Below are positions 2,413 through 22,536 of a stretch of 32,000 nucleotides of DNA, one piece after another. Position 1 is the first letter of the stretch, and each line of letters starts with the position of its first letter. This DNA comes from an uncultured Gammaproteobacteria bacterium (lineage in GTDB: Bacteria; Patescibacteriota; Microgenomatia; Daviesbacterales; UBA10151). The translations under genes and the position numbers were made by a program. Where the stretch lies: contig CAYHYM010000002.1 in assembly GCA_964360965.1 (NCBI GenBank), positions 40,412-72,411 of the forward strand, written 5' to 3'. A model generated the notes under the pieces. That model worked only from the letters and a program-made list of their open reading frames with translations. It had not been told where the DNA came from and did no database searches.

Positions 2413-3014
2413 AGGGAGAGAATTTGGGAATAATCGTGCGGGACAAAACTTAACTTTCTTGGTAAAATTTTATGGTCCTTCCATCTTCGACGGTTTTTGG
2501 GGTCAACTTGTATCTGGATCGAATGGTTAAAACCTGCCGGCTCAATATTGGGCAAACCGCTGATATTTAATTCCGCTTGTTCACCTTCATCAGGATAAAG
2601 AAGATATCCGAACCTTCCAACCTGTAAATGTTCTATCAGATGAACGATTTTTAACTGATCAGCATCTACCTCACCCAACCTAATCCTGATGGCAATTTCC
2701 CAGGCAGTAATTCTCCCATCCTCTGGTAAATACTCCAAGAAATGTTGTTTGGCCCCAAAACCCAAAAAATGCTGACTCCATAAAATGGCACCGTCATCAG
2801 TTGCAAAAGTACCATTAGGCTTTAAGCTTTCAGGCTTAATTCCTGACTTTAAACGCCTGATAATGGGAGGCAAATCCCAAGTAGCACTTAGTTTTGTATG
2901 CACTAATTTATCCAATTTGTTACAATCCCCATAATGGAAGTTGTCAAAGCGCCTGATCCCAGGCTTAAAATTCAGACAAAACCTGTCAAAAAAATAAATC
3001 CAGCTCTTTTGCAA
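2409..3014 (-). CDS. hypothetical protein (start uncertain)
   Basis: 201-aa ORF convergent with 2098-2412. Its first 80 nt would overlap def, so an in-frame downstream start such as the GTG at 2903 is plausible. No recognisable domain. Confidence 0.4.
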   Translation of the reverse strand: MQKSWIYFFDRFCLNFKPGIRRFDNFHYGDCNKLDKLVHTKLSATWDLPPIIRRLKSGIKPESLKPNGTFATDDGAILWSQHFLGFGAKQHFLEYLPEDGRITAWEIAIRIRLGEVDADQLKIVHLIEHLQVGRFGYLLYPDEGEQAELNISGLPNIEPAGFNHSIQIQVDPKNRRRWKDHKILPRKLSFVPHDYSQILSL

Positions 3015-3509
3015 ATTTTAAAAGAGATGATTAAACTGACCAAAACCTTTAAGGAACCGGAAGGTGTGGGTTTGGCCTCCACCCAAATAGGTTTGGATGA
3101 GGCTTTTTTTGTAGCTCGCCTCGATGAGTCGGCGAAGCCACGCCAAAGGCGGGCGAAGCGGGCCAAAAATGGCAATCCGCCAGCTGGCGGATTTATTTCT
3201 GTTATAAATCCTAAAGTTTTATCTTATGGTAAACGCACTAAAAAATATTTTGAAGGATGCCTGTCTTCTCCCAATATTTGGGGTGAAGTTAAAAGATATA
3301 CCTTAATGAAGGTTTCTTACCAGGATTCACATGGAAAATCCATCACCCAGACTTTCAAAGGAATCACTGCCTGGATTTTCCAGCATGAAATGGATCACTT
3401 AAATGGAATTTTATTCCAGGATCGGGTTTTGCAACAAAAAGGCAAGTTTTTTAAATTTACAGGCCGTGATAAAACAGGTCAGGATATATTTGAAGAGGTA
3501 ACAATATGA
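2934..3509 (+). CDS. def: peptide deformylase
   Basis: All three deformylase motifs are present: GVGLASTQIG, EGCLS and HEMDHLNG. A ~23-aa Arg/Lys-rich insertion (DESAKPRQRRAKRAKNGNPPAGG) sits between motifs 1 and 2 and is encoded by a GC-rich patch. Confidence 0.9.
   Translation: MEVVKAPDPRLKIQTKPVKKINPALLQILKEMIKLTKTFKEPEGVGLASTQIGLDEAFFVARLDESAKPRQRRAKRAKNGNPPAGGFISVINPKVLSYGKRTKKYFEGCLSSPNIWGEVKRYTLMKVSYQDSHGKSITQTFKGITAWIFQHEMDHLNGILFQDRVLQQKGKFFKFTGRDKTGQDIFEEVTI
3175..3192. repeat. perfect 18-nt palindrome ATCCGCCAGCTGGCGGAT inside def (encodes NPPAGG)
   Basis: Read directly from the sequence. It lies at the end of the GC-rich insertion in def. Confidence 0.7.
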
Positions 3510-4375
3510 AAAAAATTGTTTATTTCGGTACTCCTGAGTTTAGCGCCTATATCCTGGAAAAACTGCTTCAGTTTTGCCAGACAAAAAAATTCATTGTTCA
3601 GACAGTGGTCACTAGAGCAGATAAACCTGTGGGCAGAGAACAGACTGTGATGCAATCTCCAGTTGCCATGGTGGCCCAAAAATATGGCATTCTTGCTTTA
3701 AAACCACTTAAGCTTGATGAGCAGTTCCTCATTACCAACTACCCACTACTAACTGCTGACCTCTTCATAGTGGCTTCTTATGGCAAAATTATCCCTCAAA
3801 GTTTACTTGATATACCCAGGTTAGGCTCAATTAATGTTCATCCATCTCTTCTACCTAAATATAGGGGGCCAGCACCAATCCTTACCCCCATCTTAAATGG
3901 TGATAAAGAAACTGGAGTAACAATCATGTTAATGGACGCGGAAATGGATCATGGGCCACTTCTTGCTACAAGCAAGATTAGTATATCAGATCAGGATAAT
4001 CATCAGACTCTGACTACAAAACTTGCTCAGGGGTCTGCCCCACTTTTAATTGAAACTTTGGTTAAATTTGTTGGGGGAAGGATAAAACCCAAGAAACAAA
4101 AACACTCTCAGGCCACTTTTACCAAGTTTACCAAAAAAGAAGATAGTTATTTTGATATTAGCAGTCCCCCTGATCCAGAGGTTTTAGAAAGAATGATCAG
4201 GGCATATTATCCCTGGCCAGTTGTTTGGACCCGCTTTCGCCCTTCGGGCTCCAGCGGGCAAGCCCGCATCGTTAAATTCCTACCCAACAATATGCTGCAA
4301 ATGGAAGGCAAAAAGCCAATATCTTTCAAAGACTTCCTAAACGGCTACCCAGATTTTCCCTTTAAAAGTATTTAA
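3506..4375 (+). CDS. fmt: methionyl-tRNA formyltransferase
   Basis: ATGA overlap with def (classic def-fmt pair). It has an N-terminal formyltransferase fold and the SINVHPSLLPKYRGPAPI motif. A GC-rich patch encodes FRPSGSSGQAR near the C-terminus. Confidence 0.9.
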   Translation: MKKIVYFGTPEFSAYILEKLLQFCQTKKFIVQTVVTRADKPVGREQTVMQSPVAMVAQKYGILALKPLKLDEQFLITNYPLLTADLFIVASYGKIIPQSLLDIPRLGSINVHPSLLPKYRGPAPILTPILNGDKETGVTIMLMDAEMDHGPLLATSKISISDQDNHQTLTTKLAQGSAPLLIETLVKFVGGRIKPKKQKHSQATFTKFTKKEDSYFDISSPPDPEVLERMIRAYYPWPVVWTRFRPSGSSGQARIVKFLPNNMLQMEGKKPISFKDFLNGYPDFPFKSI

Positions 4376-4445
4376 AATTTGAAATTTAGTAAAAAATTTG
4401 TATAATTCATCCTTGGTGGAGAAAGTGGCAGCAGAGATTTCCCAC

Positions 4446-4542
4446 TTGCAGACAATCCAAGCACTTAAATAGCTTTCAAGATTTCCTCAATAGTTATCCA
4501 GATCTTCCAATAATTTCTCTTCCTCCTAAAATTAGACTTTAA
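4446..4542 (+). pseudogene. relic of a second, diverged fmt 3' end (frameshifted)
   Basis: Nt 4471-4542 translate to SFQDFLNSYPDLPIISLPPKIRL*. The intact Fmt C-terminus is ISFKDFLNGYPDFPFKSI*, and 10 of 13 aligned residues are identical with differences mostly at third codon positions. Upstream, LQTIQALK (4446-4469) aligns to LQMEGKKP of Fmt in a different frame, implying a 2-nt deletion. Confidence 0.5.
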
Positions 4543-6361
4543 GATCACCATAACGAGCGTAAATATGACCTCTATGTCCAATTGCTTCCACCAGACAGTT
4601 GTTACCACCCAAAGGATTGTAAACTATTCTAAAATCACCTACTCTATCAACTAATCTTTTACCACCGGACCACTCAATCATTTTAGGTCGAACTTGACCT
4701 AAGGCAAACATCCTGATATGCTCACTCATTTTATCAACATCTTTTGGCCTGGGATGTCCCCCCATTAGTTCAGTCAGTGAGAATCTGGAAGAATTTATAA
4801 CATGATATTTAGGTTCTGGCAACTCTGTTGTATTAACTGGTTTAGGCCCAGCCAAATATTGAGCTATAGGAGTGAACACTTTACTCACCTTATGATGCTC
4901 CCTCTTTGGAAATGGTAACCTAATAGGCTCTTGCCAAACAGCTTCTTGATCTACTTGAGCAGGTTGAACTTCTGCTTGTTCCACTCTGCGATAATCAGAC
5001 AATCTGATTGGTTCCCGATTGGGATGCATTTTTCTGGCTTCTTCTAATATGGGAGGCAAGATATCGGAAAATACTGCTTTGATAAAATGTTCGTGATCTA
5101 CTACAAGTTTGGCTGGCATTCCATAAAATTTACCATTCTGACCAATTTCTAAAGTAAGATGAGTTTCATCATCAGCAAAATGCAAAATAAGGACAAGAGT
5201 TTGTTTGTTTTGGCAAGTCAAAGTTATATTAGTTACAACATGACCTTCCGGCATTTTAAAATTTAGTTGTCTGTGAGGTGAACGCATCACATCAGAATAT
5301 AAATCCTTAAAATAGAAATCTATCAATCTATCAATTAAATTATCCGAATTATTATAAAGACCTTCAAGTTCTGTATCTGTCAGCTTATTTTTACCATAAA
5401 ATTGAGCAAATTGATCTAGAGCCCGACCATCCGTTTTTTCATCATAATGTTGGTATTTTTCTAAATTAGCAGGTAAAGTTTTTTCTCTATATGCCTCTTT
5501 GGCCCCCATCTCCATTGTTTCTAATATCCCGCTGTTTCTCCAGAAGAATGGGGAAAAGGAAGTTTCTACCCTGGTTTGAAAAAGCTTGATGGCAGATGAA
5601 GGTGTAATGCCAAGCCTTCCTGGCATGTATATGCCCAAAGCCAGTGGCAATCCTGGCTCGGTGTAGGCTAAAGTTTTACGAAAGGAGAACTCATCCTTAA
5701 GACCCATATCAAAGTTAACCATTAAATCTTTATAGTAGTCAAAGTAAGCGACCAGCCTATTATGCAAAGGATGTAAGGAGGGGAAAACTAAATTTTTCTG
5801 CTCGGGCCTGGCAAATTCTTGTGTTGCCAAATAGATCATGGCCTGGAGCATAACCGGAGATCTTCCAGCATGAAACATCCGATTTATTCTTCTGATACCT
5901 TCTGTGGGAAGGGGCAGGGACATTTGCTCTATATCAAAAAAAGAAGTTCCTTCAGAAGTTATTAAACCCAAAAAATTACTGCCACCTAATTCTTGAGAAT
6001 AAAAATCCTGCTCTTTGAATCTTTTGATTGCTGATTGGGGAAGAGTAACTAAACCTTTGTTTTCTGTTTGAGCCCGCTCCAAAAATATGGACAGTCCTCT
6101 TCTAACTTCCAGCCAGCGGCTTATAAAAGGTTTACCCCTATAAATAACTTTAGTGGGTTGGTGATCTTGTTCGTCAACAATCTGATTCCATTCATCTATA
6201 GTTTCACCTAATAAATTATAATGTCTATTGTATTGCCCAGCTAAAGCCTGTGCTGAAGATGAATTTGATGACCTATTTTTGCGTCTGTCGGCACGGTTAC
6301 CTAGCCCAACTTGAGGCTGGGTTTCTTGTTGGCCAGGTTGTATTTCCCTTCTGTCAAACAT
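4532..6361 (-). CDS. large uncharacterised protein with a C-terminal RelE/ParE-superfamily toxin-like domain
   Basis: Long uninterrupted ORF. The track starts it at a TTG at 6376; the first ATG is at 6361, 4 nt after the rpmB stop. The last ~92 aa (nt 4532-4810) read KYHVINSS...RVGDFRIVYNPLGGNNCLVEAIGHRGHIYARY, matching the RelE/ParE signature (RxGDYRIxY ... GHRxxxY). I recognise nothing in the N-terminal ~520 aa. Confidence 0.7.
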   Translation of the reverse strand: MFDRREIQPGQQETQPQVGLGNRADRRKNRSSNSSSAQALAGQYNRHYNLLGETIDEWNQIVDEQDHQPTKVIYRGKPFISRWLEVRRGLSIFLERAQTENKGLVTLPQSAIKRFKEQDFYSQELGGSNFLGLITSEGTSFFDIEQMSLPLPTEGIRRINRMFHAGRSPVMLQAMIYLATQEFARPEQKNLVFPSLHPLHNRLVAYFDYYKDLMVNFDMGLKDEFSFRKTLAYTEPGLPLALGIYMPGRLGITPSSAIKLFQTRVETSFSPFFWRNSGILETMEMGAKEAYREKTLPANLEKYQHYDEKTDGRALDQFAQFYGKNKLTDTELEGLYNNSDNLIDRLIDFYFKDLYSDVMRSPHRQLNFKMPEGHVVTNITLTCQNKQTLVLILHFADDETHLTLEIGQNGKFYGMPAKLVVDHEHFIKAVFSDILPPILEEARKMHPNREPIRLSDYRRVEQAEVQPAQVDQEAVWQEPIRLPFPKREHHKVSKVFTPIAQYLAGPKPVNTTELPEPKYHVINSSRFSLTELMGGHPRPKDVDKMSEHIRMFALGQVRPKMIEWSGGKRLVDRVGDFRIVYNPLGGNNCLVEAIGHRGHIYARYGDLKV

Positions 6362-6365
6362 TTTA

Positions 6366-6599
6366 TTAGGCAACAACCGAAGCTTCAGTTACTTCGGGTC
6401 TCTTATATGGGGCTTTCACAATCCTTAAACACTTAGTACAATATTTTTTACCTTTATATACATGCAAATTAGGTTTTTGGACTCTTTTGTGAATAGGCGC
6501 TCTTAGAGCCCACACACCTCCTGCTCCTGAGGATCCTTTTTTATGCCTGGAGAAAGAGATCATGTTCTTACCTTTACCACAACGGTAACAGATTAACAT
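6366..6599 (-). CDS. rpmB: 50S ribosomal protein L28 (Cys4 zinc-ribbon type, with insertion)
   Basis: CYRCGKG ... SFSRH ... KRVQKPNLH ... YCTKCLR parallels the bL28 pattern C-x2-CGK ... SHS ... R-x-F-x-PNL ... C-x2-CLK. A Gly/Ser-rich insertion follows the SHS-like motif. Confidence 0.7.
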   Translation of the reverse strand: MLICYRCGKGKNMISFSRHKKGSSGAGGVWALRAPIHKRVQKPNLHVYKGKKYCTKCLRIVKAPYKRPEVTEASVVA

Positions 6600-6600
6600 A

Positions 6601-6616
6601 TGGTAGAATTATATCA
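6601..6616. promoter_or_regulatory. overlapping divergent extended -10 promoters for leaderless rpmB and the M50 protease gene
   Basis: The intergenic region is only 16 nt. The plus strand has TGGTAGAAT (6601-6609) followed by 6 nt and the ATG at 6616. The minus strand has TGATATAAT (6616 down to 6608) followed by 8 nt and the ATG at 6599. Confidence 0.45.
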
Positions 6617-7254
6617 TGAATCCTGAGTTTTTAGCATTATCAATCATTATCCTGTTATTTTCCGTCATCTTACATGAGGTCATGCATGGATATGTAGCCT
6701 TAAGGTTTGGTGACCATACGGCACAGCGGGCTGGTAGATTAACCTTAAATCCTCTTCCTCATATTGATCTATTTGGCACCATACTTTTGCCAGGACTTTT
6801 GATCCTGTCCGGCTCCCCCATTCTGTTTGGCTGGGCCAAACCTGTGCCTGTAAACCCTTTAAATTTTTCCAACTTAAGAAAGGGGGAACTGTTGGTCTCA
6901 TCTGCCGGCATACTGGCCAACTTTGCTTTGGCTGCCGCTGCTACCATCCTCTACCACATCCTCAATGGTTTACCTCAAACTTTCCCTTTTTTGGTGGGAG
7001 CCCTGCTGCGCTTTACAGTTACCATTAATTTGGTGTTGGCAATTTTTAACCTTTTTCCCATTCCACCTTTGGATGGATCAAAAGTGCTTTTGTCTCAGCT
7101 GCCATATAAATTGGCCAAACAATATCAAAAACTGGAACAATATGGCTTTATCATTTTACTGATTCTTCTGATGATCCCATTTGGCCAATCATCACTTTTA
7201 CAAACTATCTTGGGTTTTTTGGTGAGAATATTTTCCAGAGTATTGGGATTTTAA
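6616..7254 (+). CDS. site-2 protease family (peptidase M50) membrane metalloprotease
   Basis: HEVMH (HExxH) lies in the first TM segment, followed by GRLTLNPLPHIDLFGTILLP. The protein is polytopic with a late PPLDGSKV motif, typical of the small M50 (COG1994-like) family. Confidence 0.8.
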   Translation: MNPEFLALSIIILLFSVILHEVMHGYVALRFGDHTAQRAGRLTLNPLPHIDLFGTILLPGLLILSGSPILFGWAKPVPVNPLNFSNLRKGELLVSSAGILANFALAAAATILYHILNGLPQTFPFLVGALLRFTVTINLVLAIFNLFPIPPLDGSKVLLSQLPYKLAKQYQKLEQYGFIILLILLMIPFGQSSLLQTILGFLVRIFSRVLGF

Positions 7255-7606: not shown

Positions 7607-7681
7607 GCCTCCTTAGCTCAATGGTAGAGCAACGGTTCTGTAAACCGTCGACGACAGTTCGATTTCTGTCAGGAGGCTCCA
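7607..7681 (+). tRNA. tRNA-Thr(UGU), non-canonical details
   Basis: Manual cloverleaf: acceptor GCCTCCT/AGGAGGC, D arm GCTC-AATGGTA-GAGC, anticodon arm ACGGT-TCTGTAA-ACCGT, T arm GACAG-TTCGATTT-CTGTC, with CCA encoded. Oddities are C rather than U at position 33 and an 8-nt T loop. Confidence 0.7.
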
Positions 7682-7706
7682 TGTTTACAGTGAGCGAAGC
7701 CGAACT
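7682..7706. repeat. GC-rich dispersed element fragment (TGAGCGAAGCCGAA) in the tRNA spacer
   Basis: The 14-mer TGAGCGAAGCCGAA is identical to the reverse complement of part of 10741-10790. Confidence 0.5.
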
Positions 7707-7778
7707 GCCGACATAGCTTAGTGGCAAAGCACTTCATTGGTAATGAAGAGAGCGCGGGTTCGATCCCCGCTGTCGGCT
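7707..7778 (+). tRNA. tRNA-Thr(GGU)
   Basis: Canonical cloverleaf: GCCGACA/TGTCGGC acceptor, anticodon loop TTGGTAA, T arm GCGGG-TTCGATC-CCCGC. CCA is not encoded. Confidence 0.9.
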
Positions 7779-7813
7779 CTGGATTTACTTAAGACTGAAG
7801 ACTTAATACAAAA

Positions 7814-8170
7814 ATGGCATTCAGATTTAGGAATTTTCCGATTTATGAGGATATACGTTCGTTCATTAAAGATATCTATCAATTGGCTAATAAGCTACCA
7901 AAACAGGAACAATTTGAACTAGCTTCTCAATTAAGGCGCGCAGCTACCTCTATATTACTTAATCTAGCAGAAGGTTCTATGAAAAGATCTGATGCGGAGT
8001 TTAATCGTTTTCTAATGATCTCAGTGGGTTCAGTAAGCGAAATTGTAGCTATTTTAGACGTTTGTTTTGACCTGGATTATATTAGTGCTCCAACACATCA
8101 ACAATTTATGCTAAAATGTGAATCTATTGCTAAAAGACTCTATGGTTTTAGTAGAAGATTAAAATCTTAA
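7814..8170 (+). CDS. four-helix-bundle protein (23S rRNA intervening-sequence protein family)
   Basis: 118 aa with the family hallmarks FELASQLRRAATSILLNLAEGSMKRSDAEFNRFLMISVGSVSEI. It sits between tRNA-Thr and rpmG and is flanked by TTACTTAAG-like motifs. Confidence 0.85.
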   Translation: MAFRFRNFPIYEDIRSFIKDIYQLANKLPKQEQFELASQLRRAATSILLNLAEGSMKRSDAEFNRFLMISVGSVSEIVAILDVCFDLDYISAPTHQQFMLKCESIAKRLYGFSRRLKS

Positions 8171-8203
8171 GTCTTTAGTGTTATGTATTAAGTATTTTGT
8201 AAT

Positions 8204-8377
8204 ATGGCTAAAAAGGGAAATAGACAATTAATATCTTTTCAATGTTCTGAATGTAAAAACAGGAATTATACCTCATCAAAAAACACTATCAATAGCAAAG
8301 ATCGTCTTACTTTGAACAAATTTTGTAAACATTGCAGAAAGCATACAGAGCACCAAGAGGTCAAAATAGGCAAATAA
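8204..8377 (+). CDS. rpmG: 50S ribosomal protein L33
   Basis: Not in the ORF track (57 aa). The translation is MAKKGNRQLISFQCSECKNRNYTSSKNTINSKDRLTLNKFCKHCRKHTEHQEVKIGK. This shows the bL33 pattern, with the two CxxC pairs, RNY and KHT.H.E.K. Confidence 0.85.
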   Translation: MAKKGNRQLISFQCSECKNRNYTSSKNTINSKDRLTLNKFCKHCRKHTEHQEVKIGK

Positions 8378-8455
8378 ACTAAATTTTTTCCTCTTAAAAT
8401 TTTAACCCCATATTTGACAAATGAGTTCGAACCATATATGATGGTTGTGAAACCC

Positions 8456-9115
8456 ATGCCCTATTCCATAGATACTAAAGAAAAAGCAATATCCCTTCGA
8501 AAACAGGGATACTCCATAAAAGAAGTTGCAGCACTACTCAATATAGCACAAAGCACATCTTCTTTATGGTTAAGGGAGATAATACTTTCACCTCAAGCAC
8601 AAGATCGCCTCAGAGATAGGAAAATTCTAGGGCAATATAAAGCTATTGAAACTCATAGAAAAAAGAGGTTATCTGTAATAAATGGATTCCATAAAATAGC
8701 TCTGGATGAATTATCAAAGGTTAAATTTAATAAAGCTATATATAAACTTTTGTGTGCGCTCTTTTTCTGGACAGAGGGAGGGAGATCAACAGATAGCTAT
8801 GTATATTTTATTAACTCTGATCCTGTTATGGTAAAAACTTTTGTCAAACTTCTTCATCTGTCTTTCCCTATTGAAGAAAGAAAACTGCGTGCTATGGTCC
8901 AAATACACGAGTATCATAACGATGTCGATACCAAGAAATTTTGGTCAGAAATAACACAAATTCCTGTTGGTCAATTCTCTAAAAGTTATTTAAAACCTCA
9001 TACAGGAAAAAGGATTAGAGACGGATACCAAGGAAGTATAAGAATAAGATATTACGATTATAAGATTGCATTAGAACTACGCGCATTCTATAATGTGTTG
9101 GCTCAAATAATATAG
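8456..9115 (+). CDS. HTH protein with a LAGLIDADG-homing-endonuclease-like C-terminal region (putative)
   Basis: The N-terminal HTH is KEKAISLRKQGYSIKEVAALLNIAQSTSSLWL. The C-terminal LFFWTEGGRS...VYFINSDPVMVKTFVKLL pattern resembles degenerate LAGLIDADG-type proteins. The start was chosen downstream of TTGACA (8414-8419) - 17 nt - TATGAT (8437-8442); in-frame ATGs also occur at 8438 and 8441. The stop codon overlaps tRNA-Trp by 2 nt. Confidence 0.45.
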   Translation: MPYSIDTKEKAISLRKQGYSIKEVAALLNIAQSTSSLWLREIILSPQAQDRLRDRKILGQYKAIETHRKKRLSVINGFHKIALDELSKVKFNKAIYKLLCALFFWTEGGRSTDSYVYFINSDPVMVKTFVKLLHLSFPIEERKLRAMVQIHEYHNDVDTKKFWSEITQIPVGQFSKSYLKPHTGKRIRDGYQGSIRIRYYDYKIALELRAFYNVLAQII

Positions 9116-9186
9116 GGGTGTAGCTCAGTTGGTAGAGCACTCGTCTCCAAAACGAGCGGTCGTAGGTTCGACTCCTACCGCCCCTG
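9114..9186 (+). tRNA. tRNA-Trp(CCA)
   Basis: Cloverleaf: AGGGGTG/CGCCCCT acceptor, D arm GCTC-AGTTGGTA-GAGC, anticodon loop CTCCAAA, T arm GTAGG-TTCGACT-CCTAC, discriminator G. It closely resembles classical bacterial tRNA-Trp. Confidence 0.9.
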
Positions 9187-9208
9187 CAAAATCTATCTAT
9201 ACAATGTA

Positions 9209-18326: not shown

Positions 18327-18749
18327 ATGGCTAAGAAAGTTAAAACTTATATTAAATTAAACATTCCGGCAGGACTAGCCACTGCTGCCCCGCCTGTGGG
18401 ACCGGCTTTGGGCCAGCATGGTTTGCCCATCATGGAGTTTGTCAAAGCTTTTAATGAAAGAACTGCAGAAAAACAGGGCAATATCTTGCCTGTAGTAATC
18501 ACAGTTTATGAGGATCGGACTTTTTCCTTTATCACCAAACAGCCACCTGTGGCTGAAATGATCAAAAAAGCCCTGAGTTTGGAAAAAGGATCCGGAAAAG
18601 CTTTAAAAGAACCTGTGGGGAGTATAACTCATACTCAAGTTGAGCAAATTGCCCGCTCCAAAATGCCGGATTTAAATACTAGAAATCTTGAGGCTGCCAC
18701 AAAAATTGTGGAGGGAACAGCCAGATCAATGGGGGTTAAAGTACAGTAA
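18327..18749 (+). CDS. rplK: 50S ribosomal protein L11
   Basis: [32 protein letters not shown] is the canonical uL11 N-terminus. The length is typical at 140 aa. Confidence 0.95.
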
Positions 18750-18760
18750 ATGAAAGGAGA

Positions 18761-18803
18761 ACCCTTCGTCCTGAGTTAGTCGAAGGACGAAGTGAGTCGA
18801 ACC
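18761..18803. repeat. GC-rich hairpin module between an SD-like AAAGGAGAA and the rplA ATG
   Basis: The stem pairs CTTCGTCC (18764-18771) with GGACGAAG (18785-92), followed by TGAGTCGAACC-ATGG. Confidence 0.6.
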
Positions 18804-19640
18804 ATGGGTAAAACTAAAATTAAAATAATAGATGATTCTGCTGCGGTTGGTAGACAAGATGAGTTGGTGGAAAAATTAAAAACAGAACTGGGAATAAAAG
18901 ATGTACAGCAAAAGAATGGTAAGCCGGCAAAGTCTGAGTCAGCCAAAGCAATGGGTGAAGTTAATGACAAGACTAAAAAAGCCCAAAAGACTGGCAAAGC
19001 CAAACCCAGATCTAAAAAATACCAGGAACTGGTCAAAGATCTGGACAGATCCAAAACTTATCCTATTCCGGAAGCAGTTGACATGGTTAAAAAATTGTCC
19101 TATGCTAAATTTAATGGGACCTTAGAAGCTCATATAAATACCGCACAAACGGGGATCGCTGGTTACGTCTCCTTACCCTATGCGTCCGGCAAGAAACTTA
19201 GCATTTTAGCTTTTGGCCCTCTGCCCTCGCCCGAGGAATATGAAGGAGTAAGTTTTGGTGATGATTCAACCATAGAATCCATTTCCCAGGGTAAGGTGGA
19301 TATTGATTTGATAATAACTACTCCCGAATGGATGCCTAAACTTGCCAAAGTAGCCAAAATTTTAGGACCTAGGGGTTTAATGCCCAGCCCCAAAAATGGC
19401 ACAATAACTGATGACATTAAGAAAACTGTAGAGTCCTTCCAAACCGGAAAAACAGAGTATAAAACAGAACCTAAGACCCCCATTATCCATCTGGCTCTGG
19501 GGAAATTAGACCAACCAAATGAGGAACTTGAGGCCAATGTTAAAATTCTGCTTTCTACTTTGGGCAAAACCAGAGTTAAAAAGGTATCTTTATCCCCCAC
19601 CATGGGACCATCTGTTAAGGTGGATTTAGCTTCTGTGTAA
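18804..19640 (+). CDS. rplA: 50S ribosomal protein L1 with a ~65-aa Lys-rich N-terminal extension
   Basis: The canonical uL1 core starts at RSKKYQELVKDLDRSKTYPIPEAVDMVKK and includes GPRGLMPSPKNGT. The start was placed at the ATG at 18804; the track uses a GTG at 18792, and an internal ATG at 18951 would shorten the extension. Confidence 0.85.
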   Translation: MGKTKIKIIDDSAAVGRQDELVEKLKTELGIKDVQQKNGKPAKSESAKAMGEVNDKTKKAQKTGKAKPRSKKYQELVKDLDRSKTYPIPEAVDMVKKLSYAKFNGTLEAHINTAQTGIAGYVSLPYASGKKLSILAFGPLPSPEEYEGVSFGDDSTIESISQGKVDIDLIITTPEWMPKLAKVAKILGPRGLMPSPKNGTITDDIKKTVESFQTGKTEYKTEPKTPIIHLALGKLDQPNEELEANVKILLSTLGKTRVKKVSLSPTMGPSVKVDLASV

Positions 19641-20603
19641 AGCTTTTTTTAGGATCATTCTCAGATCAATCTTTAAAAAGTAAACAGAAATGATGCCAAA
19701 AATTAGGATAAAGACAGCAGTTAAAATATGAAACAGCACCACCATGGCAGAGGCAAGGTTGGGTTCAAGTCCAAAAACTCCGGAAAAAATCAGCAAGCCT
19801 GATGCTTCAGCAGATCCCACATAGCCCGGTGCTGCCGGAATAAGGTAAGTTAAAGCAGACAGAAGTTGTCCCAAATACATATTAATAAAAGGCTGGGGGT
19901 ATGAAATGGCCAAAAAAGTAAAATACCAGATGGCTGCATCTGTGGCGTATGCCAGTATAGTTAAAAAAAGGAGCGAAAATAAATCTATTGGCTTCCTATT
20001 TAAAATAGTAAAAGAATCTAAAATAAAACTACTAAACCTCTCAAAATATATCTTAATATTCTTAAATATTAATAGATTAATCAAAAATTTAACTAATTTT
20101 TGAGCAAAATCTTTATTAAAAATGGCTAAATAAGTTACAAGCAAGGCTAAAGATAGTATAATAATTATAATTGTTATAAAATTTATACTAAGAGAGGTGG
20201 GAATTATCAGCAAAAGTACACCTGATAAAAGTAAAACCACCAGAAAATCCAAAAAACGGTCCAAAAATACCCATACCAGTGATTTTGAAAGCGGCAAGCC
20301 ATATTGGGTATTTAAATAAATTCCCTTGGCTATTTCCCCTGCTCTGATGGGAATATAAAAATTAAAAAGCATGGCTACCCCGTTTAAGAAAAGCAAATCA
20401 GAAAATTTAATCCTTTTAATCTTGGAAAGAAAAATTTTAAATCTTAAACTTCTAATAAAAATGGAAAAAAATAGAAAAATAAACACTAAAATAAGATAGG
20501 ACAGGTTAGTTTGGGAAAGAGTTAAAAAAATTTGTCCAACATCTACAAATTGCAGCCATAAAAAAATCAGCGCCAATCCTATCGCTGTATTAAGTGCTAG
20601 CAT
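19626..20603 (-). CDS. flippase-like / lysylphosphatidylglycerol-synthase TM-region family membrane protein
   Basis: 325 aa and polytopic. SLRFKIFL ... FNFYIPIRAGEIAKG resembles the LPG_synthase_TM (UPF0104) family signature. Its 3' end overlaps rplA by 15 nt on the opposite strand. Confidence 0.55.
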   Translation of the reverse strand: MLALNTAIGLALIFLWLQFVDVGQIFLTLSQTNLSYLILVFIFLFFSIFIRSLRFKIFLSKIKRIKFSDLLFLNGVAMLFNFYIPIRAGEIAKGIYLNTQYGLPLSKSLVWVFLDRFLDFLVVLLLSGVLLLIIPTSLSINFITIIIIILSLALLVTYLAIFNKDFAQKLVKFLINLLIFKNIKIYFERFSSFILDSFTILNRKPIDLFSLLFLTILAYATDAAIWYFTFLAISYPQPFINMYLGQLLSALTYLIPAAPGYVGSAEASGLLIFSGVFGLEPNLASAMVVLFHILTAVFILIFGIISVYFLKIDLRMILKKALHRS

Positions 20604-20648
20604 ATAATTAACTATACTTCAAAAAGATAAACTTTGTATAATAAAATT

Positions 20649-21434
20649 ATGTTTACTACTTTAAAACAAAAAATTATTCTGGCCATCTATATCTTTATTC
20701 TTATTTCAATACCAATTGGCTCGTATCTGGCATCTTCCCGTCAAACTTATAAAAGCAAAGCCGCAGAAGCAGATCATGTCATTATTTCTTCACCTGATGA
20801 GGAAAAAGAAAAATCTGCCACCAAATCTGCCAAAAAAACAACCACTCCAGCTTCCACTCCTTCGCCTTCGCCCACAGTGGCTGTATCTTTTGGGCCTACC
20901 ATGAACTTAAAGCTTATTTTGGAAGGAAGACCCAAAGACAAATATGCCGGCAAAGTTTTTATTGGCATTGCCGAAGGGACATCTTTCTCATCTGGCGGGC
21001 CCAAATATCTGCTGCAGTTTACTATAGACTTGCCCTCATCTGGATTTTTTGAAGGTTTGTCTTTGGCAGGACTCTCAGCTGGCACTACTTACTCAGCCTA
21101 TATCAAACCTACAGTTCAAATTGCCACCTCTTCCGCTTTTATCATGTCACCATCAATTACCAATTTAAACAGCGGAGCTCCTTTGACCATTTTAACAGGT
21201 GATTTAAATGAGGATAACACCATAAATTCGGCTGATTACTCCATTGCCAAGGCAGCTTTTGGCGCAATACCATCATCCTCAAATTGGAATGAAAATATTG
21301 ATTTTAATAAGGATCAAAGAATAAACAGCTTTGATTTGGGGCTGATTGTTAAAAATTTTGGCAAAACAGGACTGTCCGGAGTGTGGATTTCACCCACCCC
21401 CGCCACTAAATCAGGATCAATTGACAAATTATAA
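20649..21434 (+). CDS. secreted or anchored protein with a C-terminal dockerin-like repeat pair
   Basis: The start was moved to the ATG at 20649, 6 nt after TGTATAAT. An N-terminal TM/signal helix is followed by a Ser/Thr/Pro-rich linker. Two Ca-binding dockerin-like repeats follow: GDLNEDNTINSADYSIAKAAFG and IDFNKDQRINSFDLGLIVKNFG. Confidence 0.6.
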   Translation: MFTTLKQKIILAIYIFILISIPIGSYLASSRQTYKSKAAEADHVIISSPDEEKEKSATKSAKKTTTPASTPSPSPTVAVSFGPTMNLKLILEGRPKDKYAGKVFIGIAEGTSFSSGGPKYLLQFTIDLPSSGFFEGLSLAGLSAGTTYSAYIKPTVQIATSSAFIMSPSITNLNSGAPLTILTGDLNEDNTINSADYSIAKAAFGAIPSSSNWNENIDFNKDQRINSFDLGLIVKNFGKTGLSGVWISPTPATKSGSIDKL

Positions 21435-21506
21435 CAACTAAGGTAAAATTATAACAGCTTAAGATAGTAGGCAGGTTAAAATTTTGACCATAAGACTTAC
21501 TGAGGC

Positions 21507-21533
21507 AAAAACTCCTCGGTAGAAGGAGTTTTT
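21507..21533 (+). promoter_or_regulatory. rplJ leader hairpin sequestering the SD (L10-leader-like or attenuator)
   Basis: A 10-bp stem pairs AAAAACTCCT (21507-21516) with AGGAGTTTTT (21524-21533) around a 7-nt loop. The AGGAG in the 3' arm is the rplJ SD, 7 nt before the ATG at 21536. The 3' arm runs into a T tract. Confidence 0.45.
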
Positions 21534-21535
21534 TA

Positions 21536-22096
21536 ATGGCTAAAACAAGATTACAAAAAAAGCAAACAATTACTGATTTAAAGCAAAAGCTTGACCGGGC
21601 CAAGGCTGTGGTTTTTGCAGATTATAAAGGCTTAACCATGAAGCAGTTATCTGATCTGCGAAGTAAACTGTATGACCTTAACGCAGAGTTTACAATTACC
21701 AAAAATACTCTTCTTAAAAGAGCTTTAGCAGCGATGGGTGACAGCGAGGAGGGATCCCTGGCGATCTTTGATGGTCCCACAGCCACCCTTTTTGCTTACG
21801 GCGATGAAATCTCCCCTATTAAAACTTTGGCCAAAATCTTAAAAGATGCAGGCCTTGGTAAGGTAAAAGCCGGATTTTTGAGGCTCCAGGGGGACGCCTT
21901 GGAGGCACGATTTGAGGCACTTGATGAATATAGAGTAATTTCACTTTCACAGCTTCCAGGAAAAGATGAACTCAGAGGACAAACCGTAAGTGTATTATTT
22001 GCTCCCCTTCAGGGGATAGTTGGAGTCCTAAATGGTAATTTAAGAAATCTGGTATATGCATTAAATCAAATTAAATTACAGAAAGGTGGTGAATAA
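21536..22096 (+). CDS. rplJ: 50S ribosomal protein L10
   Basis: The N-terminus shows the uL10 pattern ([38 protein letters not shown]), and the gene lies directly upstream of rplL. Confidence 0.9.
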
Positions 22097-22104
22097 AATT
22101 TACT

Positions 22105-22536
22105 ATGGCAAACGATACACAAAAATTGGAAAAAATTAGCGCTCCGCTGAGTAATTCCTTAAAAGGAATTATAGAACAAATTGAAAAACTTTCTGTTTTG
22201 GAACTGGCTGATTTGGTTCATGCACTCGAAGATAGATTTGGTGTTTCAGCGCAAGCTTCGGTTGCTGTTGCAGCAGGACAGGCCGCCTCCGCACAAGGCT
22301 CCGGCGAGCCGATGGAAGAAAAAACAACTTTCAATGTTGTTTTAACTCAAGCAGGAGCAAATAAAATTGCAGTTATTAAAGCTGTAAGAGAATTGGTTCA
22401 AACATTAGGATTAAAAGAAGCTAAAGATTTGGTAGAAGCAGCTCCAAAACCTGTTTTGGAATCTGTAAACAAAGCTACTGCTGAAGAAGCAAAAACTAAA
22501 TTAACAGCAGCTGGAGGAACAGTTGAGTTGCAGTAA
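22105..22536 (+). CDS. rplL: 50S ribosomal protein L7/L12
   Basis: N-terminal dimerisation helix ([28 protein letters not shown]), an Ala/Gly hinge, and the C-terminal domain [31 protein letters not shown]...GGTVELQ. Confidence 0.95.

Follow-up and report, generated by a model that had tools for sequence, protein, structure and literature searches.

RelE-type nucleases are textbook components of two-gene toxin-antitoxin (TA) systems. Ribosome-associated endonucleases with targeting domains, such as Rae1 of B. subtilis and SmrB of E. coli, cleave ribosome-bound mRNA in the ordinary physiology of the cell. Within the BECR superfamily, to which RelE belongs, toxin and antitoxin can also be fused, as in the genes ParD-ParE, HigB-HigA, RelE-YiaG, and BrnT-BrnA (Gerdes, 2025; PMC11980606), and the same article acknowledges that many multidomain BECR proteins have no antitoxin that can be identified, and sets them aside unanalyzed. 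A further case is Cami1, a CARF-RelE protein that, in the account available through that article, places a RelE-fold nuclease under the control of an attached sensor and has no antitoxin (Mogila et al., 2023, Science, via PMC11980606; PDB 8phb/8phj). The gene considered here, termed X, encodes a 609-aa protein on the minus strand of a 32,000-nt stretch of contig CAYHYM010000002.1 (GCA_964360965.1). This whole stretch, hereafter the window, comes from the chromosome of a Daviesbacteria-like bacterium of the candidate phyla radiation (CPR) and is a housekeeping region. X is a BECR/RelE protein of several domains that lacks an antitoxin, has an orphan N-terminal domain (N-domain), and is restricted to Microgenomates; its family is unannotated, fast-evolving, and accessory.

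A RelE-Like Domain at the C-Terminus of X

The C-terminal domain (C-domain) of X is, by its predicted structure, a member of the RelE/ParE (BECR) superfamily. Modeled in isolation with AlphaFold2 (98 residues, 36-sequence alignment), it reached a predicted local distance difference test score (pLDDT) of 92.1 and a predicted template modeling score (pTM) of 0.81. The elements assigned by DSSP (E9-11, H15-22, H28-42, E49-53, E56-63, E66-74, E77-85, and H86-93) give a topology of beta, alpha, alpha, four strands, and a C-terminal helix, which is the same element order as the RelE-like topology of a BECR survey (bioRxiv 10.64898/2026.08.28.747851). When the model was compared with the PDB by Foldseek, the best 14 matches were all RelE/HigB-type or related toxins, namely RelE of T. 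thermophilus, M. tuberculosis (RelE1 and RelE2), and M. jannaschii, RelG, HigB of E. coli and Shigella, a pneumococcal TA toxin, and PfiT, which was the weakest among them. The best TM values were 0.57-0.67, with probabilities up to 1.00, and Cami1, YafQ, BrnT, and ParE appeared lower in the list, ParE at rank 24 or below. The fold claim rests on the consistency of this list and not on any single value. ParE ranks lower in it, and the C-domain resembles the mRNA-cleaving members of the RelE/HigB kind more closely than it does ParE. A preliminary description of the stretch had proposed a RelE/ParE-like C-terminus from its sequence motifs, and the confident model and the RelE/HigB toxins at the top of the Foldseek list bear this out; the peptide on which the proposal was based is the exact translation of 4535-4810, with GDLKV then ending X.

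Sequence comparisons lead to the same superfamily. The sole Pfam match of X is PF05016 (ParE_toxin; E 0.007), which covers the second half of the model only. ParE_toxin matches were also found in relatives (6/36, 5/42, and 4/78 members; best E 1.3e-5), where no other family recurs, and four of five members searched against PHROGs came out as “RelE-like toxin.” A profile built from 36 C-domains matched T. thermophilus RelE best among PDB sequences (E 0.027), followed by Rv2866 and RelE. Alignment with E. coli RelE by hhalign extended over 79 columns and placed R578, R597, and Y601 of X on R61, R81, and Y87. Among 117 aligned family domains, the R61 counterpart (R of GDxR) is Arg in 114, the R81 counterpart (R of GxR) is Arg or Lys in 114, and the Y87 counterpart is Tyr or Phe in 79 (68%); R573 is Arg or Lys in 109. 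Since these key residues are conserved across the family, the motifs RVGDFRIVY and IGHRGHIY of the window protein are not a chance resemblance. The C-domain is basic throughout the family, with a median pI of 9.8 and a charge of ~+5.

Residues 597-604 (nt 4550-4573), in the C-terminal helix of the C-domain, are helical when the domain is modeled alone but coil when the whole protein is modeled. This difference is a very weak hint of intramolecular control, or else a modeling artifact. In the RelBE system, RelB reportedly inactivates RelE by displacing the C-terminal helix of RelE.

Architecture and Distribution of the X Family

The AlphaFold2 model of full-length X (pLDDT 85, pTM 0.83) divides the protein into an N-terminal tail, an orphan domain, a linker, and the C-domain (Table 1). 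The tail is basic (family median pI 10.8 for residues 1-40), and the Q/S/R-rich, low-complexity character ascribed to it earlier agrees with predicted disorder over its first 21 residues. The orphan domain is mainly helical, with an additional four-stranded sheet at residues 366-407. Its conserved motifs are DIExM, YFDYY, ARLGITPSSAIKL, and THLTLE...YGxP, and D208, S256, H401-E405, G414, and P416 are invariant or nearly so. The linker contains a conserved short helix (residues 498-504) with the motif LTPIxxxL..P.P, in which RxLTP is conserved. Residues 1-517 gave no Pfam or NCBIfam domain (Pfam on 120 members), and hence contain no recognizable antitoxin or DNA-binding domain. For the orphan domain itself, there was no match in PADLOC, in PHROGs, among PDB sequences in a profile search, or by Foldseek against the PDB and BFVD. 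The preliminary description could not place the N-terminal ~520 residues in a family, and Pfam, NCBIfam, the PDB, and Foldseek likewise returned nothing. The family proteins showed no signal peptide and no transmembrane segment, nor any known trafficking domain.

A word-indexed search retrieved 42 homologs, all of ~570-670 aa and none with a Pfam domain, and those that are named belong to Candidatus Daviesbacteria or to the Microgenomates group. An exhaustive hidden Markov model (HMM) search of 1.84 billion representatives yielded 198 clusters at 50% identity, 132 of them with E ≤ 1e-30. Nearly all are 570-630 aa long and match the profile from position ~10 to ~595. The fusion that had been noticed in the single window protein is a conserved property of the family, since the RelE-like C-domain is present in 116 of 128 full-length members. 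Column conservation is higher in the N-domain (0.46) than in the C-domain (0.42), making the N-domain the best-conserved part of the protein.

The remaining 12 full-length members (~9%; P0037, P0042, P0082, P0121, and P0127 are examples, P-numbers denoting family proteins) end instead in a different C-terminus of ~125 aa that closes with HHxxFxxxY. Pfam, the PDB sequence search, and hhalign gave no assignment for this variant C-terminus and no tie to RelE. By eye it is RelE/YoeB-like, and one module may here have been exchanged for another while the N-domain stayed constant.

Stand-alone relatives of the C-domain were sought by a word-indexed profile search, which gave only the contig-end fragment P0157, the tail of gene X itself; the short HMM matches were mostly contig-end fragments as well. 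The same RelE-like subtype occurs at residues 203-296 of P0154 (303 aa), after an unrelated N-terminal region, and this is the only clear alternative architecture that was met for it.

A phage or mobile origin of X was considered and rejected, as no copies turned up among phage records or IMG/VR contigs and the GC content of the gene is that of its flanks, a native base composition.

The Locus of X and Its Variability

Gene X lies within an open frame spanning 4532..6376 on the minus strand, and the ATG at 6361 yields the 609-aa product. This is the likely start because the N-termini of homologs (MLDRREVLP...) line up with that of X (MFDRREIQP...). As claimed previously, the ATG (6359-6361) follows the TAA of the upstream ORF (6366-6368) by 4 nt. 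On the other side, the opposite-strand fmt gene ends at 4375. Neither the 156-nt gap between X and fmt (4376-4531) nor the interval between X and the upstream small ORF contains any open reading frame (ORF) of at least 40 aa. A search for partners compared all ORFs within 1.8 kb of X at 20 independent loci against each other. The only ORF families present in at least 3 of the 20 loci were an L28-like ORF, an M50 peptidase, fmt, def, a short ORF beside def (three loci), and their shadow ORFs. No conserved antitoxin- or immunity-like neighbor was found. The claim that X has no antitoxin gene thus holds for the ORFs of the window and for the 20 loci alike.

The arrangement M50(-)/small ORF/X/[variable]/fmt/def/87-aa ORF/Wzy_C is shared by the window and by loci L001, L003, L009, L012-L016, and L021 (L001-L027 being the homologous and sister genomic loci that were compared); the short contig of L027 holds no more than M50, the small ORF, and the beginning of X. 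An L28-like ORF directly precedes X in 11 of the 17 loci with enough upstream sequence. In L014 and L021, the small ORF stays with X though insertions part it from M50. The other six loci have X elsewhere: between ychF and rpsF in L011 (ychF-X-rpsF-ssb-rpsR, 5001-7224), before rpsF in L023 (1254-3210), between rplA with a glycosyltransferase gene and rplJ in L022 (86-4893), after folA-glyA with rpsB 1.5 kb downstream in L006 (2043-8090), after an unknown 197-aa gene in L010, and after a 300-aa gene in L025. Away from L28, X often still abuts translation genes, a tendency that may exceed chance.

Three sister Daviesbacteria genomes keep the M50-L28-...-fmt-def order without X and carry genes unrelated to it after L28 (Table 1). 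In X-bearing genomes, PIN/MazE pairs, AbiEii, and an AAA_14-DUF4143 ATPase occur in the L28-fmt interval too. A 589-aa unknown protein is likewise encoded in this interval, further stretches of which lie at 1043-3532 of L014 and 5854-7011 of L015. Because sister and X-bearing genomes hold differing genes there, the L28-fmt interval is a variable slot, of which X is one alternative occupant. The linkage to rpmB proposed earlier is accordingly conserved in part, being found in 11 of 17 loci and absent from the other six, and the adjacency of X and L28 looks like a variable insertion slot and not a dedicated partnership.

Sequence divergence also sets X apart from its surroundings. Between the window and L003/L009, identity is 77-82% for M50, 60-66% for Wzy, and 63-64% for Def, but just 29-32% for X. 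Between the window and L001, X is 55% identical, though M50 (72%) and Wzy (54%) are less similar than in the comparison with L003/L009. From these values, X is fast-evolving and incongruent with its neighbors.

A Probable Divergent L28 Upstream of X

The 77-aa small ORF preceding X probably encodes a divergent, Deinococcus-type L28, as judged from its sequence. Its three best PDB matches are all D. radiodurans L28, with which it shares GGV...KRVQxxNLH. The E-values of these three range from 0.023, obtained with the single sequence, to 0.7, and profiles gave 0.24-0.5. However, there was no Pfam or NCBIfam L28 match at E ≤ 1, so that the L28 identity given in the preliminary description has weak PDB matches in its favor and the family databases against it; an hhalign comparison of the small-ORF profile with E. 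coli L28 was uninformative. The small-ORF family comprises more than 406 clusters with 65-92% identity and four invariant Cys residues (Cys4). Its members are mostly labeled “hypothetical,” with one entry labeled “ribosomal protein L28” (JGI), and they occur in genomes with and without X. In view of this conservation, of its presence in genomes without X, and of its resemblance to L28, the small ORF was rejected as a candidate antitoxin. Copies lie at 5737-5973 of L001, 5752-5988 of L003, and 4755-4985 of L012, and several public gene tables do not call the ORF as a gene. As Pfam, NCBIfam, and some gene callers miss this Cys4 L28-like gene, L28 could look absent in censuses of CPR ribosomal proteins.

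TATAAT-like boxes stand 7-9 nt upstream of the ATGs of both L28 and M50 (region 6585-6630), and at the same distance before the ATGs of def, GH1, EamA, and ASCH. Most genes of the window, including def, L28, M50, L33, GH1, EamA, and nusG, have no Shine-Dalgarno (SD) sequence. This suggests that leaderless mRNAs are widespread in the source organism. No minus-strand promoter-like site was found in or beside the 4-nt gap between L28 and X, and the terminator and promoter scans gave nothing above shuffled expectation. Since the 4-nt gap leaves no room for a promoter, L28 and X probably form one leaderless transcript with X as the second cistron. The start of X does lack an SD sequence, as had been noted, but SD-less starts are the norm in the window and are not diagnostic of translational coupling to rpmB. 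The connection with the ribosome that had been drawn through rpmB is likewise weakened by the faint L28 resemblance, by its restriction to 11 of 17 loci, and by the other genes that follow L28 in sister genomes; the “link” of X to rpmB is largely positional.

Features of the Window

Coordinates are collected in Table 1. The genes of the window include Wzy_C/TPR, def, fmt, X, the small ORF, M50 peptidase, two tRNA-Thr, and a 23S-IVP protein, as well as L33, tRNA-Trp, GH1, EamA, PBP1, NusG, L11, L1, L10, and L12.

Table 1. Coordinates of gene X, its domains and surroundings in the window, and of the genes that follow L28 in sister genomes.
Feature	Position	Strand	Basis
Gene X, 609 aa	4535..6361, stop codon 4532-4534	-	ORF listing; homolog alignment for start
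Basic Q/S/R-rich tail, residues 1-40	6242..6361	-	pLDDT <50 for residues 1-21; conserved NRxxRR
Orphan domain, residues 41-455	4997..6241	-	AlphaFold2 pLDDT mostly 85-98
Linker, residues 456-517	4811..4996	-	pLDDT <50 at 456-481, up to 85 by 501-510
RelE-like (BECR-fold) domain, residues 518-609	4535..4810	-	AlphaFold2, Foldseek, ParE_toxin match, residue conservation
R578 codon (GDFR), aligned with catalytic R61 of E. coli RelE	4628..4630	-	hhalign column map
R597...Y601 codons (GHRGHIY), aligned with R81 and Y87 of E. coli RelE	4559..4573	-	hhalign map
77-aa Cys4 small ORF, probable divergent L28	6366..6599	-	PDB L28 matches; stop 4 nt before X start
Divergent spacer, 16 nt, between L28 and M50 start codons	6600..6615	.	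Sequence
def-fmt	2934..4375	+	Pfam; far edge of conserved syntenic frame, convergent with X
136-aa unknown protein, sister-genome occupant after L28	L017/L018 5268-5678		
550-aa GH5-like protein, sister-genome occupant after L28	L019 5306-6958		
527-aa unknown protein, sister-genome occupant after L28	L020 5475-7058		

Two other regions of the window merit description. A compact cluster at 7607-9187 comprises tRNA-Thr(TGT), tRNA-Thr(GGT), a four-helix protein of the 23S_rRNA_IVP family (7814-8170), L33 (8204-8377), a 233-aa HTH_23 protein (8414-9115), and tRNA-Trp, which starts at 9114, at the last base of the HTH_23 protein. At 18327-22536, rplK-rplA is parted from rplJ-rplL by an LPG_synthase_TM gene (19626-20603, minus strand) and a gene for a dockerin-domain protein (20634-21434, plus strand); the same gap between L1 and L10 is occupied by X in L022. 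The L1 ORF (GTG start, 282 aa) has ~100 residues ahead of the Pfam L1 match, and its true start may be further downstream.

Possible Functions of X

The explanation tentatively favored here, to which somewhat less than an even chance is given, is that X is a cytoplasmic, accessory, single-chain, self-restrained effector of the RelE branch. The RelE-like domain would be the effector, binding the ribosomal A site and cleaving, or at least blocking, mRNA by means of its Arg/Arg/Tyr set. The N-domain, the conserved linker helix, or both would restrain it in cis, and it would be released on a signal sensed through the N-domain, for example phage infection or stress. We thus infer an autoinhibited, ribosome-dependent nuclease whose trigger is read by the N-domain. 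Restraint in cis is proposed because no antitoxin exists, and its design principle is that of Cami1 and of fused toxin-antitoxin proteins. X would then be a fast-evolving accessory occupant of the variable slot past the probable L28, with whose gene it would be transcribed. Among the three readings that the preliminary description had offered, the cis-regulated toxin fits best, whereas a domesticated ribosome-associated factor is disfavored and a polymorphic toxin that has lost its immunity gene is unsupported.

Several observations weigh against such an effector. The Foldseek E-values of the C-domain are only ~0.02, which is attributable to the small size of the query (~90 residues). The profile comparison that matched ParE_toxin did so with 17.3 bits, below the gathering cut-off of 23, and the hhalign probability with E. 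coli RelE, a template consisting of a single sequence, is just 13%. The counterparts of K52 and K54 of RelE are not kept among the 117 aligned domains, and the near-invariant Glu of FExG is replaced by Ala in the window protein. X had no match among 50,697 phage records or IMG/VR contigs, and five diverse family members had no match in PADLOC. In addition, X repeatedly stands beside ribosomal-protein genes, and co-transcription with the probable L28 would entail constitutive expression, which would be no less fitting for a housekeeping factor than for a toxin.

These last points lead to a domesticated ribosome-associated factor, in which the RelE fold would serve as the A-site or ribosome-binding module, perhaps still nucleolytic, of a lineage-specific protein of translation, quality control, or mRNA turnover that is made together with ribosomal proteins, with no toxin involved. 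The recurrence of X behind the probable L28, even where insertions separate L28 from M50, and its positions beside rpsF and between rplA and rplJ are in keeping with such a role, as are its native base composition and the lack of an antitoxin. A ribosomal-protein gene adjoins X in three of six distinct contexts (rough p ~0.02-0.03 if ~6% of genes encode ribosomal proteins). However, X is missing from sister Daviesbacteria genomes with the same gene frame, evolves far faster than and incongruently with its neighbors, has its C-terminal module swapped or remodeled in 12 of 128 members, and shares its slot with TA and Abi genes, so that this alternative, the main rival of the favored explanation, is rather unlikely. 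A more specific and less probable form of it holds that X is a surveillance nuclease of Daviesbacteria and not a toxin, in which a RelE-fold A-site endonuclease would be joined to a ~450-aa domain recognizing stalled, collided, or hibernating ribosomes and would be co-expressed with ribosomal-protein genes, as the rpmB, rpsF, and rplA/rplJ contexts might indicate. If true, X would be a RelE-based analog of Rae1 or SmrB in minimal-genome bacteria. It is also distinctly unlikely that the N-domain is the core enzyme, with D208, S256, H401, and E405 as its key residues, and that the RelE-like domain is an RNA- or protein-binding appendage, neither catalytic nor toxic. The strongest motifs (YFDYY, LGITPSS, and THLTLE) and the highest column conservation do lie in the N-domain, and S256 stays near-invariant in the most divergent set as well, but no enzyme fold was recognized there, and a mere appendage would not need the RelE catalytic counterparts to be kept at 97%.

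The remaining alternatives retain a toxic C-domain and change its target or its route. Poisoning of DNA gyrase, or another non-ribosomal target, would be expected of a ParE-like domain, and the sole Pfam match is indeed ParE_toxin, with ParE structures among the Foldseek matches; yet these rank 24th or lower with probabilities below those of RelE/HigB, and the Arg/Arg/Tyr set typical of mRNA-cleaving members is conserved, which leaves a ParE-like action very unlikely. An exported polymorphic toxin whose immunity gene was lost would account for the large N-terminal region followed by a small C-terminal toxin fold, for the minority with a different C-terminal module, and for the rapid divergence. 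It is nevertheless the least probable of these readings, given that signal peptides, transmembrane segments, and known trafficking domains were not detected, that no immunity-like ORF is conserved downstream at the 20 loci, and that the best-conserved part of the protein is the N-domain and not the C-domain.

Comparison With Known Systems

The C-domain of X has the same fold, topology, and basic surface as stand-alone RelE/HigB type II toxins (T. thermophilus RelE, PDB 2khe; M. tuberculosis RelE1, 9g12, and RelG, 3g5o; HigB of E. coli and Shigella), with which it also shares the counterparts of R61, R81, and Y87 and the GDYRI...GxRxxxY layout. It differs from them in being the tail of a ~600-aa protein without an antitoxin gene, and in not keeping K52 and K54. 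A type II TA toxin is a small stand-alone protein (~85-100 aa) with an adjoining cognate antitoxin gene, whereas X has 609 aa (570-630 aa in the family) and no such gene adjoins it in the window or at the 20 loci. As both properties were tested and found lacking, X should not be classified with the type II TA toxins, although its RelE-superfamily domain may well function in the manner of one. Polymorphic toxins are characterized by a secretion or trafficking domain and a downstream immunity gene, neither of which was detected for X. Rae1 and SmrB resemble X in concept and in genomic proximity to translation genes, but their folds (NYN and SMR, respectively) are unrelated to it, and X is patchy and fast-evolving.

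The fused BECR TA proteins are closer, in that they and X each consist of a single chain with a toxin domain and a presumed neutralizing or regulatory part. However, their partner domains are recognizable as ribbon-helix-helix, helix-turn-helix, Phd/YefM, or ParD, none of which is detectable in X. Cami1, which is among the Foldseek matches of the C-domain, shares with X a RelE fold C-terminal to a large domain of another kind and the lack of an antitoxin. In contrast to the CARF domain and type III CRISPR context of Cami1, X has no CARF match, housekeeping neighbors, and an N-domain of unrecognized fold. To our knowledge, almost nothing is known of the defense and stress biology of CPR bacteria, in which the X family joins a RelE-like domain to a confidently predicted orphan domain in ~200 clusters. 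If the N-domain is a sensor or inhibitor, it would be a new regulatory domain for ribosome-dependent RNases in a compact single-gene module. Cami1 and the fused TA genes are among the few cases in which a RelE fold is controlled within one chain, and the X family would add a third solution to theirs.

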